A stretch of DNA of 14,470 nt from Nitrospinota bacterium. GTDB lineage: Bacteria; UBA8248. Positions 97 to 12,910 of this stretch are shown one piece after another. A model generated the notes under the pieces. It saw only the letters and a program-made list of their open reading frames with translations, had not been told where the DNA came from and searched no databases. The position numbers and the translations under genes were made by a program. Within the stretch, counting starts at the first letter, position 1. Each line of letters opens with the position of its first letter. The DNA lies in contig JAYGFR010000110.1 of the NCBI GenBank assembly GCA_046581755.1, positions 1 to 14,470 on the forward strand, given 5' to 3'.

Positions 97-114
97 GCTC
101 TCGAAACTCTTGCC

Positions 115-158
115 AAAAACAAAACCCGCCCCGCGTATTTAGCCGATGCGCGGGGCGG
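115..158 (-). terminator. Rho-independent terminator closing the minus-strand MerR operon (possibly also serving the convergent + gene)
   Basis: Inverted repeat CCGCCCCGCG (126-135) / CGCGGGGCGG (149-158). The A-rich tract at 115-124 gives a U-tail on the minus-strand transcript. Confidence 0.7.
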
Positions 159-184
159 CGGGGGAGCGGCGTGCGAAACCGGAA

Positions 185-580
185 TCAGGGACCGGATTTG
201 GCGCCGAAAATTCGCGAGCCGATGGCTCCGAGAAGCGCATCCCCCCGCTCGAAGTCGGGGATGATGCAGACATCGTTTTCCACGCCGATTTCGTGGATGG
301 AGGCGATTTCCCGCTTCTCGGCCCCCTCCTGGAGATGAATGGCGTTGTCAACGTCAATGGTGAATCCGAAATCTTTCGCGAGCCCTTCCAGGGCCGCCCA
401 TTTCTCCTGGTTCCAATCGATGGTGGAGGCCAGGCGAAATTTGAGTTTGCCTCATCAAAATCCTGCGAACCGGTAGTCGCCCCTGGAGATGGATTGGCGC
501 TTTTTCCGCGTCTTCTCGAAAAAATCGGCCTCCTGGCTGATCTCCTCCATGGCGCTCCGGGCTTCCTCGAACAGGCTCAA
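185..580 (-). CDS. Putative selenoprotein, 131 aa, with two adjacent in-frame TGA codons (residues 42-43): MSLFEEARSAMEEISQEADFFEKTRKKRQSISRGDYRFAGF-U-U-GKLKFRLASTIDWNQEKWAALEGLAKDFGFTIDVDNAIHLQEGAEKREIASIHEIGVENDVCIIPDFERGDALLGAIGSRIFGAKSGP*
   Basis: SD AGGAGG (594-589) lies 8 nt before TTG at 580. The same frame is protein-like on both sides of TGA TGA (457-452), and there is no in-frame restart right after them. A hairpin follows downstream. The stop at 187-185 precedes a terminator. The + ORF 146..703 is its codon-aligned antisense shadow. Confidence 0.7.
400..440 (-). promoter_or_regulatory. Candidate bacterial SECIS stem-loop
   Basis: The mRNA AUUUC-G-CCUGG-CC-UCCA-[CCAUCGAU]-UGGA-A-CCAGG-A-GAAAU can form 14 Watson-Crick pairs, beginning 11 nt after the second UGA. 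Folded by eye only. Confidence 0.45.
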
Positions 581-626
581 AAGGAATTCCTCCTATTTCG
601 CGTTCACGACGGGCCGGGACGCGCGA

Positions 627-755
627 TTAATGATCCTTCTTGTCTGCCGCCTGGGTGGAAGCGATTTTCTTGTCACCGGCGAGCTGGACCGTGGACGGGG
701 TGATGACTTTGACGCTCTTGAAATGAGGTCCCGCGCATCCGCAGAAGAAACACAT
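627..755 (-). CDS. 42-aa Cys-rich peptide MCFFCGCAGPHFKSVKVITPSTVQLAGDKKIASTQAADKKDH; putative metal-binding small protein
   Basis: Strong SD AAAGGAGG 6 nt before ATG at 755 and TAA at 629-627. It fills the gap between the MerR gene and the TGA-TGA gene and carries an N-terminal CxxCGC motif. Confidence 0.75.
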   Translation of the reverse strand: MCFFCGCAGPHFKSVKVITPSTVQLAGDKKIASTQAADKKDH

Positions 756-783
756 GTTATTCCTCCTTTCGCTGTTGGAAACG

Positions 784-1239
784 TTATTGGGGATTTTCCT
801 CCGTTCCACCGATGGGAATCAACCGGGGGAGGTCTCCCAGGCATGTGCAAACGCTATTATCGTGGTCGGAGTAGGGGCGCCGCCCCAATTGGTCAAGCTC
901 CTCCTCGAGACTCCGCCGAAGGTCCGCGAACAGTTCGATCTGTGCGCTCAACTCGCCGATGCGCTCCTTGAGGACATTCGTCAGGACAGGGCGCGTCATG
1001 GCGCACGATTCTCCCGGCCACAGGGAGACGATGTCGGCGATTCGGCGAAGGGAAATTCCCAACTCCTTGGCCCGGCGAATGAAGATGAGGCGCTGGATGT
1101 CGGCCTCCCCGTATTGGCGGTAGCCGTTCGCGGAGCGGGGCCGTTTGGGCAAAAGCCCTCTCCCCTCGTAGTAGCGGATTGCCCTGGGCGTCAGCCCCGT
1201 GGTTTTGGACACCATTCCGATCGGCATCGTCTCGTCCAT
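784..1239 (-). CDS. MerR-family transcriptional regulator (151 aa), probable metal sensor
   Basis: MerR HTH signature IGMVSKTTGLTPRAIRYYEGRGLL…RSANGYRQY…RLIFIRRAKELGISL, a coiled-coil helix, and Cys79, His126, Cys131, Cys133. SD GGAGGAG precedes ATG at 1239; the upstream ATG at 1263 lies inside the -10 box. Confidence 0.93.
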   Translation of the reverse strand: MDETMPIGMVSKTTGLTPRAIRYYEGRGLLPKRPRSANGYRQYGEADIQRLIFIRRAKELGISLRRIADIVSLWPGESCAMTRPVLTNVLKERIGELSAQIELFADLRRSLEEELDQLGRRPYSDHDNSVCTCLGDLPRLIPIGGTEENPQ

Positions 1240-1261
1240 GACGTTCTCCTCCACTTCCCCC

Positions 1262-1293
1262 ATTCTAAACCCTTCCCCATAGGGAAGAGTCAA
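1262..1293 (-). promoter_or_regulatory. MerR-type sigma70 promoter/operator: -35 TTGACT, 20-nt spacer, -10 TAGAAT, dyad ACTCTTCCC-TATG-GGGAAGGGT
   Basis: The minus strand reads TTGACTCTTCCCTATGGGGAAGGGTTTAGAAT. An over-long spacer with a 22-bp dyad overlapping the -35 is the hallmark of MerR-activated promoters, and this one lies directly upstream of the MerR gene. Confidence 0.88.
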
Positions 1294-1322: not shown

Positions 1323-1656
1323 TCACCCGCCCTCTTCGTCCTCGCCCAACTTGTCCCGGAGGAATTTTCGGAAACGCCCGCCGGTTTCGGTGTCGAGAAA
1401 GATGAGAAACGCCCTCCCGCCAGAGGGAGGAGGGCGAGAATGAACCGCTTGGCCCGGAGGGCGGCGGCCAGATCCCGCCCGCTTGCCGGAATACGAAAGA
1501 GGCGGTCCCCATCAGGCGAAGTTCGAAATAGGTGGGTTGACCCGGCGAAATAGCGGGTGGTTTGCCGGGTGATGAGAGCAGAACGGCGAGCAACAAGACG
1601 CCGCCGAATGCGGAGAGGGCGAGTCCCGCCCGGGTGCGCCAGCCCGCTCCTTGCAT
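1323..1656 (-). pseudogene. Small two-TM membrane protein gene (~111 aa) with two apparent 1-nt deletions in G runs (pseudogene or sequencing error)
   Basis: ATG at 1656 with GAGG upstream. Restoring one G at ~1474-1476 and one at ~1412-1414 gives MQGAGWRTRAGLALSAFGGVLLLAVLLSS…FRQAGG/DLAAALRAKRFILALLPLAGG/AFLIFLDTETGGRFRKFLRDKLGEDEEGG* ending at TGA 1325-1323. Confidence 0.6.
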
Positions 1657-3651: not shown

Positions 3652-3773
3652 CTGTGGGTTTAACCGATTCGGGCGGAGGCGGGTCGGTGGCGATTCGGGT
3701 TGTGATCCCCGCCCTGGACGCTCCGCCCTGAATGAGGGTTCCTTTTCGGCACTGCCCGTGCCGTATTTCCTTT

Positions 3774-4808
3774 TTAATCCATCACGATTGCGGCGCGTCC
3801 GGTGATCAGTCCCGCTTCGAGGCGGGCATGAACCTTTTCGGCCTCCTCGAGTTTGTAGATTTCGGTGACAAAGGGCCATACCTCCCCGCGCGCCACGAGA
3901 TCGAGCGAGTCCCTGATCTCCTGTTTGGTAAACGAGCGGCTGCCCATGAGTTCAAGTTCCTTGGCGAGCATGGCTCCGGCCGAGACCCGGAAGGGCTCGG
4001 GTGTGTTGCCGCCCAGGGTGACCAGGCGGCCCCCCCGGCCGAGGGCTTCGGTGGCGGTCTCCAGGGTAGTGGGGGTGGAGACGAAATCGATCGCCACGTC
4101 GAGGCCGCGCCCCCCGGTGAACTCTGCCAGGGCCTCGGCGACGTTGTCCCTGGAGCCGTCGATGACGGCCTCGGCGCCCATCTCACGGCATTTGCCGAGT
4201 TTTTCGGGAACGATGTCCACCGCGACGACGCGGGCATGGGCCCAGCGGGCGAGCATGACCATATGAATTCCGACGCCGCCGCCCGCCCCGAATACGGCGA
4301 CCGTCTCCAGCGGGGCGATGCGCGCCCGGCGCACCACCTTGTAGGGGGTGACGATGGCGTCGCAGATGACGGCGGTCTCCGCCGGATGTGCCTTGTAGTC
4401 GAGGTTCTCGGGGATGGGGATGAAATTTCGGGCGGGCATTTTGATGTACTCGGCGTAGCCACCGTCCGCGTTTCGGCCGGTGAAGCCCGCCAGGTTCTCG
4501 CAAAGCGCCTCGCGGTCGATCCGGCACCAGTAGCAATGCCCGCAGGAAAGGTAGCAGTGCATGGTGACCGGATCGCCCTCCTTGAGGAGGGTTACGCCCT
4601 CGCCCACCGCCGAGATCTCGCCCAGCACCTCATGGCCGATGATGATGGGGTAGGTGACCGGAGCGCGCCCGGCGCGGGCATGGTGGATGGTGAGCCCGGA
4701 ACCGCAGGCCAAGACGCGGGCGACTGCCTCGCCCGGCCCGGGTACGGGATCGGGAACCTCTTCCAGCACGAAGGGGGCGCCTTTTTCGTGAAGAACCATT
4801 GCTTTCAT
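3774..4808 (-). CDS. Medium-chain (zinc-binding alcohol dehydrogenase family) oxidoreductase
   Basis: GHE motif, structural Zn motif CGHCYWCRIDREALC and Rossmann GAGGGVG. The first catalytic-Zn motif is altered (ACGSGLTIHH). Confidence 0.93.
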   Translation of the reverse strand: MKAMVLHEKGAPFVLEEVPDPVPGPGEAVARVLACGSGLTIHHARAGRAPVTYPIIIGHEVLGEISAVGEGVTLLKEGDPVTMHCYLSCGHCYWCRIDREALCENLAGFTGRNADGGYAEYIKMPARNFIPIPENLDYKAHPAETAVICDAIVTPYKVVRRARIAPLETVAVFGAGGGVGIHMVMLARWAHARVVAVDIVPEKLGKCREMGAEAVIDGSRDNVAEALAEFTGGRGLDVAIDFVSTPTTLETATEALGRGGRLVTLGGNTPEPFRVSAGAMLAKELELMGSRSFTKQEIRDSLDLVARGEVWPFVTEIYKLEEAEKVHARLEAGLITGRAAIVMD

Positions 4809-5563
4809 GGGATTTTCCTCTTGAATACGAATAAACGATGGGCGCTCCTGCGGGGCGCGCGCTCTCTCTGTCGAGAATTGTTTTTCACCAGCGGTCCGAT
4901 GGGATCGAGACGCACCCTCCGCCCTTGGACGAGCTTGAGGGTGACCTGCTTGCCGTCGGCCGAAAATGCCTTCCAGTGCTTCATCCCGAATATGGTCTGG
5001 CTACCCGTCAATGGATCGTGAAGGGGGAATTCGGCGAAAACCTTCCATCCCCCCTCCAGCGCCCCGAGGACGATTCCGTCCGTGCAGCAGGGAAACCATC
5101 TGTGCCAGGTGGAAAAATCCCGCCCGCCGGGGGCGGCCCGGAAAGAGTCCCAGTCACTGTAGGGATCGTCGAACACGAGGACGCGGGCGCCGTTCGGGTC
5201 TCCGGTCACCTTGATCCGCATGACGGCGGCCCCACCGTCGGTGTCGCTGGGCTTGTCGTGGACGATGAAGAGGGAAAACCCCTCCCGGGTGGTGACGAAA
5301 AATAGATGCGAGGTGTCCGCCTGAAGCCGGGGATGCGGGCCGTTGAACGAGTAGCGGGAAACCGCTTGGTAGGAGTAAAAATCGCTCGCCGCCTTTTCCT
5401 TCTCGTAGTAAGCATCGATGTGGCCCAGGACGTTCGCGTCAAAATCTCCGAGGCCGGGGCGGGACTCCTGGGCGACGCGGATGCGGACGGCGGCGGCGGG
5501 CGCGGGCGCGGCTTGAGGAATAACGGCCAAGATCAGGAGGATTGAGCAGGCGGTTTTTCCCAT
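4805..5563 (-). CDS. Hypothetical exported protein with signal peptide
   Basis: MGKTACSILLILAVIPQAAPAPAAA is signal-like and codon usage is coding-like. The stop overlaps the ADH start (ATGA). Alternative start at 5587. Confidence 0.75.
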   Translation of the reverse strand: MGKTACSILLILAVIPQAAPAPAAAVRIRVAQESRPGLGDFDANVLGHIDAYYEKEKAASDFYSYQAVSRYSFNGPHPRLQADTSHLFFVTTREGFSLFIVHDKPSDTDGGAAVMRIKVTGDPNGARVLVFDDPYSDWDSFRAAPGGRDFSTWHRWFPCCTDGIVLGALEGGWKVFAEFPLHDPLTGSQTIFGMKHWKAFSADGKQVTLKLVQGRRVRLDPIGPLVKNNSRQRERAPRRSAHRLFVFKRKIP

Positions 5564-5587
5564 CGGCTGGCCTTCTGCGAAACGCAT

Positions 5588-7002: not shown

Positions 7003-7572
7003 TCAATCGTTTCTATCGTCTCCGACCAGGGCCAAATCCGTCTGGAGCGGGAAATCCACCTGGCCGAGATCGACATTGGCATTGATGCCGGGAGGAGGCG
7101 CGAAAGTGTCCTTGGGGCCGAATGGCTGGACCTCGAACATTATCGTTTTTGAATTGCTCATGTTCCCGGCGCGGTCCTCGACGAGGACTTCCACCGTGCC
7201 GTATATGGTGCCGGAGGCTCCTCCGCCGTTGAGGTTGGCCCACACCGAAATAGACCCGTTCATGGAGGCGACCTTTTTATCGAAATATATGGTATCGGGT
7301 GAGTAGGAAGAGGCGCCGAGTTGTCCGAAGGTGAACTGAATCTTATCCAGATCGCCGTCCGGGTCGGTGGCGCGGATGTAAATTTTCCAGATATTTCCGT
7401 TGCGAATTTCGGTCTGGGCCGCGATTACCTCAAGGATGGGTTCATGCGCCTTGCCCACCGGCTCATCCATGGGCGGCAAGAGAAACGGGAGAAACGCTTT
7501 TGCCGTTGCGGCGGCCAGAAAAAGAAATGCCGCCCCCAGAAATATGGATCCGAGAGCCATTTTACGAGTCAT
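7003..7572 (-). CDS. Hypothetical exported protein, predicted beta-rich/Ig-like
   Basis: Signal peptide MTRKMALGSIFLGAAFLFLAAATAKA, plus ATDPDGD and VEDRAGNMS motifs typical of secreted beta-sandwich modules. SD GGGGGAG precedes ATG at 7572. Confidence 0.8.
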   Translation of the reverse strand: MTRKMALGSIFLGAAFLFLAAATAKAFLPFLLPPMDEPVGKAHEPILEVIAAQTEIRNGNIWKIYIRATDPDGDLDKIQFTFGQLGASSYSPDTIYFDKKVASMNGSISVWANLNGGGASGTIYGTVEVLVEDRAGNMSNSKTIMFEVQPFGPKDTFAPPPGINANVDLGQVDFPLQTDLALVGDDRND

Positions 7573-7673
7573 TATACTCCCCCTAACGTCCATCGGTATT
7601 CCAAGAGTGGCGGCGATCCCTTCACCTAACTATTAGACATCAAAAATGATACAAAATTTCTTTTTTTTCGAAA

Positions 7674-11274: not shown

Positions 11275-11564
11275 TGTTTTACTACCGGCTTGGCCGCATT
11301 CTTCAGATTCTGGCCTTGATCGACTGTGCGTTCGCGCTTTTCTTCGCGGGCCTCTTTCCCGCGTTCTCCGGGATGGAGGCACAGCTCCAGATTGTCCTCT
11401 TCGCGGGCGCCCTTTTCGCCGCCGGAAGGGTTTTCCAGAAAATGGGCGAGTCCAGGCTCCAGGCCGCGGGGGCGGCTTCCGGCGCCCAGGATTCCGGGGA
11501 TGACGCTTCGGTCTCCTCGCCGGAATCTCCACAGGGCGGGAGCCATGAAATCGAGAGCCGTTGA
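11274..11564 (+). CDS. Small two-TM hypothetical membrane protein
   Basis: TGATG coupling with the aminotransferase, two hydrophobic helices and a low-complexity tail. Confidence 0.75.
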   Translation: MFYYRLGRILQILALIDCAFALFFAGLFPAFSGMEAQLQIVLFAGALFAAGRVFQKMGESRLQAAGAASGAQDSGDDASVSSPESPQGGSHEIESR

Positions 11565-12910
11565 GCCGGCCCGGACTCCTGGCGACCTTCTCCGAGAGAT
11601 GGGACGGGCGCTACCGCGAGTACCTCGATAAAAACATCGGCCGGGTGAGCGGGGAGATACTCCCCAAGCTCGTAAAATTTCTGTTTCCGGCCTCGGCCGA
11701 GCCCACCCTGCCCGAACAGTGTCTTCCCGTTTCGTTCATCCATCTCCGCCTTCTCGGCGGGGAGTCCCTGCGCACCGTCCAGGAACGCATGGAGCCCTTG
11801 GCGTGCCTGTTCGGGATGGCGGGCGCCAGGCTCCCGACCGGAACTCTCTACCTGATTCTTACATCGCTGACCTCAACGCCCGGGAACCTGTCCTCCCTCG
11901 CGCGGGCGCAGGCGGCTTTTTTCAGCCTCCTGCTCCGCCGCCTTGCGAGAGCGATCGACCGGGGGGAGAGCGAGAGTTCGATTCGCGCCGAGTTGGCCGG
12001 GGTTTGGGACATCCGCGGCGAGGGGGCCGCCGAGGCCGCCCTTCAGGGGGCGCGAGGGTACTGGAGACGCTTCCGCGACCCACATTTGGGACTCATCCCC
12101 CTGCCGTTCGATCTGGCCGAATGGATGGCCGAGAATGGGCTGGGCGGGGAGATGGACTCGGAACTGGCGCTTTTCCCGAAGGCCGGAGGACATCCCCATC
12201 TCGAAGCCCTGGCCGGCCGCCTGGCCGCCGCCGAGGCCCTGAAGGCGGCCCTGCAATCCGGTGGGGCGGGCCAATCCGCGCTCGGGCAAACCCTCGCGGA
12301 GGTTCAGGGGAGTCTCGAAGCCGCCCTGGAGGGGATCACGCCCTGGGAGGCCGAGGCCCTCCGCCCGGTGCACCCGCTCATCTCCTCGCTGGTGGCGTGG
12401 TCCGGGCGTCTCCTGCTTTTGGGCGAGGGAGAGACGCCGGTTGCCTCCACCGGGCGCGAGAAGCTGGCCGACTGGCTGAGCGAATTATTGGGCAGTACAT
12501 CGTCCGGGAGGCTTTTGGTGGGGGGCGACACCTATCTCATCTTCGGCGCCGATGTCACCGCCGCCCCCGAGGCGGTTTCGGCCGAGTTGGCCGAGCCCGG
12601 CAAAGGAGAGAAAGACGCCGTATCTCTCCGGGTCCGCTTCGGTGGCGCCGAGAAAAGGTTCCGCTTCGATCTTTCGGCGGGGAAAGATCTGCTGGCAGCC
12701 GTCCGTCTCGCGCATCAGCCCGACATCCGGGCGGATTTGTTTCTCCGGGGAGAAAACGGTCTCTGGCGTTTCGCGGCCTCGCGCTATCTTCAGCCGGACG
12801 AGGCCCACCGCGCCGCTTGGCGCCGGCGGGTGCTTGAATACCTTTTCGAGAAATTCGGCGGGGAGGAGGACCAAATCCGACTGGAGATTCTGAAGGCCGT
12901 CAAAGGATAG
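11561..12910 (+). CDS. Hypothetical protein (449 aa)
   Basis: Long ORF with coding-like composition whose TTG start overlaps the upstream stop (TTGA). It converges tightly with the MFS gene. No recognisable motif. Confidence 0.75.
   Translation: MSRPGLLATFSERWDGRYREYLDKNIGRVSGEILPKLVKFLFPASAEPTLPEQCLPVSFIHLRLLGGESLRTVQERMEPLACLFGMAGARLPTGTLYLILTSLTSTPGNLSSLARAQAAFFSLLLRRLARAIDRGESESSIRAELAGVWDIRGEGAAEAALQGARGYWRRFRDPHLGLIPLPFDLAEWMAENGLGGEMDSELALFPKAGGHPHLEALAGRLAAAEALKAALQSGGAGQSALGQTLAEVQGSLEAALEGITPWEAEALRPVHPLISSLVAWSGRLLLLGEGETPVASTGREKLADWLSELLGSTSSGRLLVGGDTYLIFGADVTAAPEAVSAELAEPGKGEKDAVSLRVRFGGAEKRFRFDLSAGKDLLAAVRLAHQPDIRADLFLRGENGLWRFAASRYLQPDEAHRAAWRRRVLEYLFEKFGGEEDQIRLEILKAVKG

Follow-up and report, generated by a model that had tools for sequence, protein, structure and literature searches.

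The window analysed here is a 14,470-nucleotide (nt) stretch of DNA, contig JAYGFR010000110.1 of Nitrospinota bacterium assembly GCA_046581755.1, from a marine Nitrospinota genome of 4.22 Mb. Near its start, on the minus strand at 114-1293, lies a compact unit made up of a long-spacer promoter, merR, a gene for a cysteine-rich peptide of 42 amino acids (aa), a reading frame interrupted by TGA-TGA, and a terminator-like hairpin. We interpret the interrupted frame as a predicted selenoprotein gene in which TGA is read as selenocysteine (Sec), and the unit as one that likely serves in the handling of a soft metal. Its features, with coordinates in the window, are as follows:

1262..1293, minus strand: MerR-type promoter, TTGACT (1293-1288), a 20-nt spacer and TAGAAT (1267-1262)
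1272..1287, no strand assigned: operator-like perfect dyad CTTCCC-TATG-GGGAAG inside the spacer, an exact pattern match
784..1239, minus strand: merR, 151 aa, with candidate sensor residues C79, H126, C131 and C133, recognised by Pfam MerR_1 and MerR-DNA-bind
627..755, minus strand: Cys-rich peptide, 42 aa, MCFFCGC...FKSVKVITP, read from the sequence
185..580, minus strand: predicted selenoprotein gene, TTG start (580), 131 codons, TGA stop (187-185), from sequence reading, homologues and substitution ratios
452..457, minus strand: TGA-TGA, codons 42-43, predicted Sec-Sec, of which codon 43 is the conserved one in the alignment of seven loci
400..440, minus strand: hairpin resembling a selenocysteine insertion sequence (SECIS), with its apical loop about 29 nt past the second UGA, recognised by conserved pairing
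335..337, minus strand: His82 codon, candidate second ligand, invariant across Sec and Cys forms
114..158, minus strand: terminator-like hairpin and U-tract, a 10-bp GC stem (158-126) with a 13-nt loop, then GGUUUUGUUUUU
1412..1431, minus strand: terminator-like site from a terminator scan, that would close the upstream SDR gene and so isolate the unit

Promoter, three genes, gaps, ribosome-binding sites, TGA-TGA frame and terminator all lie where a preliminary description of this DNA had placed them, and the open reading frame (ORF) track does mis-call all three genes as that description had said, over-extending merR and the peptide gene and splitting the selenoprotein gene. The genes are separated by gaps of 28 nt (merR to peptide) and 46 nt (peptide to selenoprotein gene), and each start is preceded by its own Shine-Dalgarno sequence: GGAGGAG for merR, AAAGGAGGAA for the peptide and AGGAGGAA for the TGA frame. 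A regular expression describing the promoter architecture finds a single match in the 4.22-Mb genome, at 1262-1293. The standard sigma-70 scan of 1-1500 found nothing, blank at the promoter because it allows spacers of 16-18 nt and the spacer here has 20, just as the generic terminator scan passes over the 114-158 hairpin because its loop limit is 8 nt and this loop has 13. No regulon can be read from the dyad, since a genome-wide search for CTTCCC-N4-GGGAAG with 1 mismatch allowed returns 32 sites against 40 for a control pattern. Contigs from RNA libraries cover the operon, bridging the peptide and selenoprotein genes (463-732) and crossing the UGAs (302-607, 156-481, 449-615), and at 452-457 the spanning contigs of three RNA libraries show no differing letter; these contigs are short, and uncovered stretches carry no meaning.

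Homologues of the TGA frame were recovered by six-frame search in 5 of 61 relatives and samples, every one of them with an in-frame TGA at the same place. Within the phylum, carriers amount to 5 of 51 genomes and 4 of 15 genera, and three of the four other carrier genomes are metagenome-assembled genomes of Nitrospinota bacteria; a metagenome scan added at least two further, more distant loci. Seven loci were compared (the window, L022, L023, L024, L025, L026 and L027), with relatives 68-74% identical to the window protein. Codon 43 is TGA in all seven, which span several families. Codon 42 varies: three loci (the window, L023 and L024) have TGA there, L022 has a Cys codon, L025 a Tyr codon, and L026 and L027 have an Arg codon, so that the second Sec alone defines the family and Sec-Sec is a variant of it. 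The 'Sec-Sec protein' of the preliminary description is accordingly sound at its second residue and applies at its first to only three of the seven loci.

Ratios of nonsynonymous to synonymous substitution rates (dN/dS) lie between 0.08 and 0.20 for codons 2-41, where 10 of the 15 pairs could be computed and 5 were saturated, and between 0.08 and 0.28 for codons 44-128 (15 of 15 pairs), which shows coding constraint, that is purifying selection, before the TGA as well as after it. A collection of 5.8 billion proteins yielded 24 matches, all of 78-100 aa; 23 of them are C-terminal pieces covering 60-65% of the query, as expected on the Sec reading if gene callers stop at the TGA. The Sec position is occupied by Cys in 10 of 10 Cys-form sequences of an alignment of 13 sequences (A6); the proteins with Cys there include P0031, P0033 (both repeats), P0042/P0078 and eight Deinococcus proteins. 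The preliminary description had proposed a search for selA, selB, selC and selD, and the Sec machinery is complete in this genome: selA (569.8 bits) and selB (374.7 bits) stand side by side on C136, both above curated cut-offs, as is selD (335.4 bits), and aragorn places a tRNA-SeC(tca) on C264. The selD gene (C268:4596-5561, minus strand) is itself a selenoprotein form with one in-frame TGA, and selB exceeds its cut-off in all four of the other carrier genomes.

It is very improbable that the frame is instead a decayed gene, or two small genes, in which the TGAs terminate translation. Such a reading could point to a hairpin that has no statistical support of its own, and to the inefficient decoding that we would expect of an adjacent UGA pair; it is opposed by the TGA at the same codon in seven loci, by low dN/dS on both sides, by Cys at the Sec position in relatives, by the Sec machinery of this genome and the selB of all four other carriers, and by the downstream part itself, which has no start codon before a GTG at 283. 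The TGA frame is, on this comparative evidence, a real conserved gene with predicted read-through of TGA as Sec. In the hairpin at 440-400, 93.3% of cells pair, as against 42-54% in slid registers; an Rfam scan matched no family, and a SECIS element at this position is plausible.

Two further sequences deserve record beside this family. P0028, a full-length relative of 145 aa, has Gly at the Sec position (…GGTRGSKLAFRL…), which may be a TGA translated by the gene caller with another code or a true Gly variant. L023 also carries, at 5236-5364 on the plus strand, what is left of a second selenoprotein copy, free of stops and comprising residues ~88-131 only, with a MacB_PCD-like gene on one side and a pair of FtsX/MacB permease genes on the other (L023:4449-8030); in L022 a MacB_PCD gene comes right after the selenoprotein gene. 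The preliminary description had remarked that the unit holds no transporter as effector, as is the case, these two relatives (L022 and L023) having MacB/FtsX permease genes downstream.

The predicted selenoprotein falls outside the families that we could compare it with. It has no Pfam or NCBIfam match at E <= 0.1, DUF3813 at E 0.17 being the sole listing, and a profile search of PDB sequences with the family returned nothing. Among 1.84 billion representatives a profile search picked out 22 proteins only, a few of them full-length with Cys at the Sec position: P0031 is a Cys form with an added N-terminal MCDCC cluster, P0033 is duplicated in tandem and has Cys in each repeat, and P0042 is present in Meiothermus and Calidithermus. 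Residues invariant across Sec and Cys forms in A6 are G40, U/C43, K45, F48, W56, E65, H82 and L83, and H82 is also nearly invariant in a further alignment, A3. An AlphaFold2 model built on a 23-row alignment (mean predicted local distance difference test score 93.7, predicted template modelling score, pTM, 0.87) shows two N-terminal helices, then a beta-hairpin (36-42, 45-50) tipped by residues 42-43, then an alpha/beta domain. Foldseek against PDB gave no match at E <= 1e-3, an exhaustive structure aligner gave a best Z of 6.7 to generic alpha/beta arrangements that are not interpretable, and an ESM Atlas search with P0031 gave an uninformative best score of 0.81. The predicted fold of P0033 (pTM 0.47) has equal secondary structure in both repeats and no confident domain packing, and a dimer reading drawn from it was set aside as unsupported for that reason.

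Table 1 of a 2026 review (PMC13188914), the part of that source on which we rely, gives 119 prokaryotic selenoprotein families, all with domain identifiers, and no UU motif appears in it. The Pfam, NCBIfam and TIGR models of these tabulated families gave no match to our protein, a comparison that covers those three kinds of identifier, with cd and PTHR identifiers and families without a representative accession outside its scope. A search of a literature collection found no description of the selenoprotein family, the peptide or the operon. Judged from sequence, the predicted selenoprotein is a new selenoprotein family within an otherwise uncharacterised family associated with copper pumps.

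That association comes from the Cys forms. A tblastn search of plasmids found the Cys form in 13 records, 12 from Deinococcus and one from Meiothermus taiwanensis, and in each of the 13 plasmid records, all of them inspected, the homologue comes immediately after a gene, on its own strand, for a heavy-metal or copper P-type ATPase. Genes for a CsoR-type repressor and an HMA (CopZ-like) protein flank the pump in 10 of the 13, divergent from it in nine and co-directional in Meiothermus; in D. aetherius only an HMA gene is seen, truncated where the stretch ends, and in D. grandis and D. taeanensis neither gene occurs within the fetched stretch. In Meiothermus the pump contains a CPC motif and a pair of HMA domains. 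A second Meiothermus copy (L043:7029-7451; NZ_CP021131.1 196028-196450, minus strand) is interrupted by two stops in frame, and its annotation gives two small hypothetical proteins; this broken copy has a copper P-type ATPase gene on one side and SHOCT and DUF302 genes on the other, in an island with genes for a multicopper oxidase, a four-helix-bundle copper-binding protein, DUF305, DUF302 and DUF411. Tandem pairs of the Cys-form gene follow the pump in D. aetherius (L047:2752-3611) and D. grandis (L052:2508-3399), and in P0033 two such domains are fused in tandem. The Deinococcota proteins are annotated as hypothetical and match no Pfam or NCBIfam model. Because the Cys forms sit behind heavy-metal/copper P-type ATPases in 13 of 13 records, copper is the metal we favour.

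The same records supply the main rival, a redox role, which we rank first among the alternatives on the strength of a glutaredoxin link and nevertheless think unlikely. Here the protein would be a selenol/thiol oxidoreductase that might reduce Cu(II) or repair thiols damaged by metals or oxidants, the peptide or a glutaredoxin would be its thiol partner, and MerR would sense thiol-reactive stress. A glutaredoxin gene does start 4 nt past the Meiothermus homologue, and a weak thioredoxin_3-like ORF (E 0.0064) lies upstream in L027. Against these stand the count of neighbours, glutaredoxin being adjacent in 1 of the 13 plasmid records and a P-type ATPase in all 13, and the protein itself, which contains no CxxU/UxxC-type motif and no thioredoxin-like fold. 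The list of NCBIfam matches to the regulator includes NmlR and SoxR, as thiol-reactive stress sensing would suggest; the best of them are the metal sensors CueR, ZntR, MerR and CadR. A single invariant Sec/Cys also speaks for this role, being typical of redox selenoproteins in the part of PMC13188914 drawn on here.

The gene order that accompanies the selenoprotein gene was examined across the seven loci, as the preliminary description had suggested, and it is largely retained: the peptide gene immediately precedes the selenoprotein gene in 6 of the 7, and the regulator is a MerR protein in three (window, L024, L027). Four of the seven loci (window, L024, L026, L027) have a MerR-type promoter; that of L024, upstream of merR, equals the window promoter with one dyad base changed, and those of L026 and L027 read TTGACC-TTCCAG-N3-GTGGAA, that is, TTCC..GGAA dyads. 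Gene order and in-frame TGA recur in six other loci, more than chance would produce. Divergent from the MerR-type promoter of the peptide-selenoprotein pair in L026 is a gene for a multi-pass membrane protein with a PCAFPLFPAY motif (L026:3-782, minus strand), which has no Pfam match at E <= 0.01.

The window peptide begins MCFFCGCAGPHFKSVKVITP... and, when the six peptides are aligned, M1, C5, G6, C7, F12, S14, V15, V17 and P20 are invariant, giving all six the combination of CGC with F-x-S-V-x-V-x-x-P. Its 29 unnamed database relatives are of two kinds, a short one (MC..CGC) and a long one (MSTPTTLES...SCGCGC(GC)DDD...SVAV.LPSA). In L027 (698-1462, plus strand) and in P0072 the merR frame runs stop-free into the peptide, and MerR and peptide may be translated as one fused product; within the L027 frame the peptide start retains a Shine-Dalgarno sequence of its own (GGAGGAAAAGAC-ATG). 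Two fusions link the parts of the unit, this merR-peptide frame (L027, P0072) and the MCDCC N-terminus of P0031. L027 also encodes, at 282-527 on the opposite (minus) strand upstream of merR, a second, divergent peptide of the long type (…SCGCGCGCDEEF…LVLPQP…). A reading of the peptide as precursor of a ribosomally synthesised and post-translationally modified peptide was dropped, there being no modifying enzyme nearby.

In 4 of the 6 peptides residues 1-7 read M-C-x-x-C-G-C, which invites a nickel interpretation, in which the peptide would stand alone as a counterpart of the CxxCGC nickel site at the HypB N-terminus, with the selenoprotein as its nickel partner. NCBIfam HypB_prefix_1 does match the peptide weakly (E 0.1, 14 bits), a score far under the 30-bit cut-off; the long subtype carries its CGCGC(GC) cluster internally and not at the N-terminus, no hydrogenase, urease or nik genes are nearby, and the relatives are tied to copper-type pumps. 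We regard nickel as quite improbable and, together with mercury or cadmium, as a lesser rival than the redox role.

Pfam recognises in the regulator a winged helix-turn-helix and dimerisation helix (MerR_1 3e-18, MerR 3.8e-13, MerR-DNA-bind 1.8e-11), and the regulator falls below every NCBIfam equivalog cut-off, the best being CueR (TIGR02044) at 77.5 bits against a required 147.4. C79, S124, D125, H126, C131 and C133 are invariant in all three MerR regulators aligned; H126, C131 and C133 lie in a loop, with a spacing that we take to be unlike that of known sensors. C79 aligns with the Cys of 'THC' in the 5crl chain 'Mercuric resistance operon regulatory protein', and the CueR chains in the alignment have no Cys at that position. 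The metal might then be mercury or another divalent thiophilic metal (Cd, Zn, Pb) instead of copper, sensed by MerR through Cys79 and clamped by the vicinal Sec-Sec. Vicinal CU/CC motifs are indeed proposed as heavy-metal ligands in SaoL, SaoB and HgcA, in the part of the preprint by Haft and Gwadz (bioRxiv 10.1101/2022.07.06.499078) that bears on them. This substitution of metals is nonetheless improbable in our judgement: the unit is without merA, merT and merP genes, the vicinal pair occurs in only 4 of 7 loci (UU in three, CU in one), and the Cys-form relatives accompany copper-type pumps in 13 of 13 records, with CsoR and CopZ in 10 of the 13.

Taken together, we consider that the conserved unit of MerR, Cys-rich peptide and predicted selenoprotein likely binds or hands on a soft metal, most probably copper, once the regulator senses metal, and give this a probability of about 0.6. 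In the mechanism we propose, a thiophilic metal would bind the MerR dimer at C79, H126, C131 and C133 (the last three in an S-D-H126-x4-C131-x-C133 loop), and metal-bound MerR would activate the long-spacer promoter. The peptide would chelate the metal through its CxxCGC cluster and might dock on the selenoprotein by way of the conserved, beta-like F-x-S-V-x-V-x-x-P segment, whereupon Sec43 (with Sec42 in this genome) and His82 could hold the metal, pass it on, or keep thiols reduced.

This reading must be tempered by several observations that weigh against it. Regarding copper, Cys79 is typical of divalent-metal sensors and absent in CueR-type Cu(I) sensors, and no pump or other transporter is encoded inside the unit. 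The link to a pump is not kept in Nitrospinota: the window gene follows merR and the peptide gene and not a P-type ATPase, and the genome's own copA (C75:27519-29930) and copZ (29973-30158) have a TetR-like neighbour and no selenoprotein homologue alongside. The adjacency of glutaredoxin in Meiothermus fits a redox role as well as it does metal binding, and the modelled fold resembles no known metal-binding protein in Foldseek against PDB or the exhaustive aligner. The unit itself varies, L022 having a PadR regulator with a CEC motif in place of MerR and L023 having neither peptide nor regulator within 700 nt upstream. Covariation in the hairpin falls short of significance, being reached by 66 of 500 shuffles, and the window hairpin alone is no stabler than shuffles (z = -0.84). 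Finally, similar RNA contigs occur across the whole 14.5-kb window, and those over the operon therefore show neither induction nor a single transcript.

With these points counted, the interpretation given in the preliminary description is supported in outline. Its soft-metal role gains from the Cys forms, which follow copper-type P-type ATPases in all 13 plasmid records; copper in particular sits badly with the Cys79 of MerR. More tentatively, we can conceive of the unit as a selenium-based soft-metal defence, in which a MerR sensor would control a two-part chelator (Cys-cluster peptide and selenoprotein with a Sec-Sec tip), the selenoprotein coming from a hitherto unrecognised family whose members partner copper-export pumps in several phyla; no earlier selenoprotein might then have been shown to act in the detoxification of copper (or Ag/Hg), and no earlier bacterial protein to have two selenocysteines side by side.

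Were the reading correct, a new selenoprotein family would lie outside the thioredoxin-like redox world, with a vicinal Sec-Sec or Cys-Sec tip, and would be mis-annotated everywhere as a short fragment (the 78-100 aa database pieces). It would expose an uncharacterised protein that comes after the copper pump in all 13 plasmid records from Deinococcota; some of the hosts are cultured strains, making a knock-out feasible. It would also present a MerR regulator that targets small chelating proteins, not a pump or enzyme, and for marine nitrite oxidisers a selenium-using route against thiophilic metals.

Elsewhere in the genome, the TetR-like regulator before copA (region C75:26802-30158) carries a PCCGCPIG motif and may be an unusual copper sensor. 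In the remainder of the window, four long ORFs at 3732-5021 (+), 11561-12910 (+), 4805-5587 (-) and 7003-7593 (-) have no Pfam match at E <= 0.001.

Among known systems, the unit is most readily set beside the MerR-family metal operons (CueR-copA/cueO, ZntR-zntA, MerR-merTPA), with which it shares a winged-helix regulator with dimerisation helix, a promoter with a 20-nt spacer and a dyad in that spacer; the TTCC..GGAA dyad presumably resembles the copA operator. Unlike in those operons, merR is here the first gene of its own target operon, and the targets are a peptide and a predicted selenoprotein rather than a pump, oxidase or reductase. The regulator differs from known MerR sensors in its sensor loop, S-D-H-x4-C-x-C, and in scoring below all equivalog cut-offs.

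To the copA-linked Deinococcota protein (WP_027888009.1 of Meiothermus; WP_012694742.1 of Deinococcus deserti) the predicted selenoprotein is homologous over its whole length, with a profile match to P0042 at E 9.7e-8 and a tblastn match to the Meiothermus form at 38.5% identity (E 3e-7), and the invariant G-x2-[C/U]-x-K...H-L core of that family is present in the window protein. The Deinococcota forms differ in having Cys for Sec, in lacking the Cys-rich peptide partner, and in standing behind a P-type ATPase with CsoR and CopZ and not under MerR control. With the vicinal CU/CC proteins of the SAO system and HgcA, as described in the relevant part of bioRxiv 10.1101/2022.07.06.499078, our protein shares adjacent chalcogens and database products cut at the Sec site; it is unlike the SAO/Hgc families in that no sequence or model match exists, the motif is UU, CU, YU or RU, and the context is another one.

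The peptide has the same M-C-x-x-C-G-C spacing at its very N-terminus as the high-affinity nickel site of HypB, from which it differs in being 42 aa long without a GTPase domain, in its model score below cut-off, and in a context that is not hydrogenase maturation. The small bacterial metallothioneins SmtA and MymT are likewise short and Cys-rich, and inducible as the window peptide may be, and we take the CxC repeats of the long peptide subtype to resemble Cu(I)-thiolate clusters; unlike SmtA and MymT, the peptide described here conserves a segment other than its Cys residues, F-x-S-V-x-V-x-x-P, and comes with a protein partner of its own.

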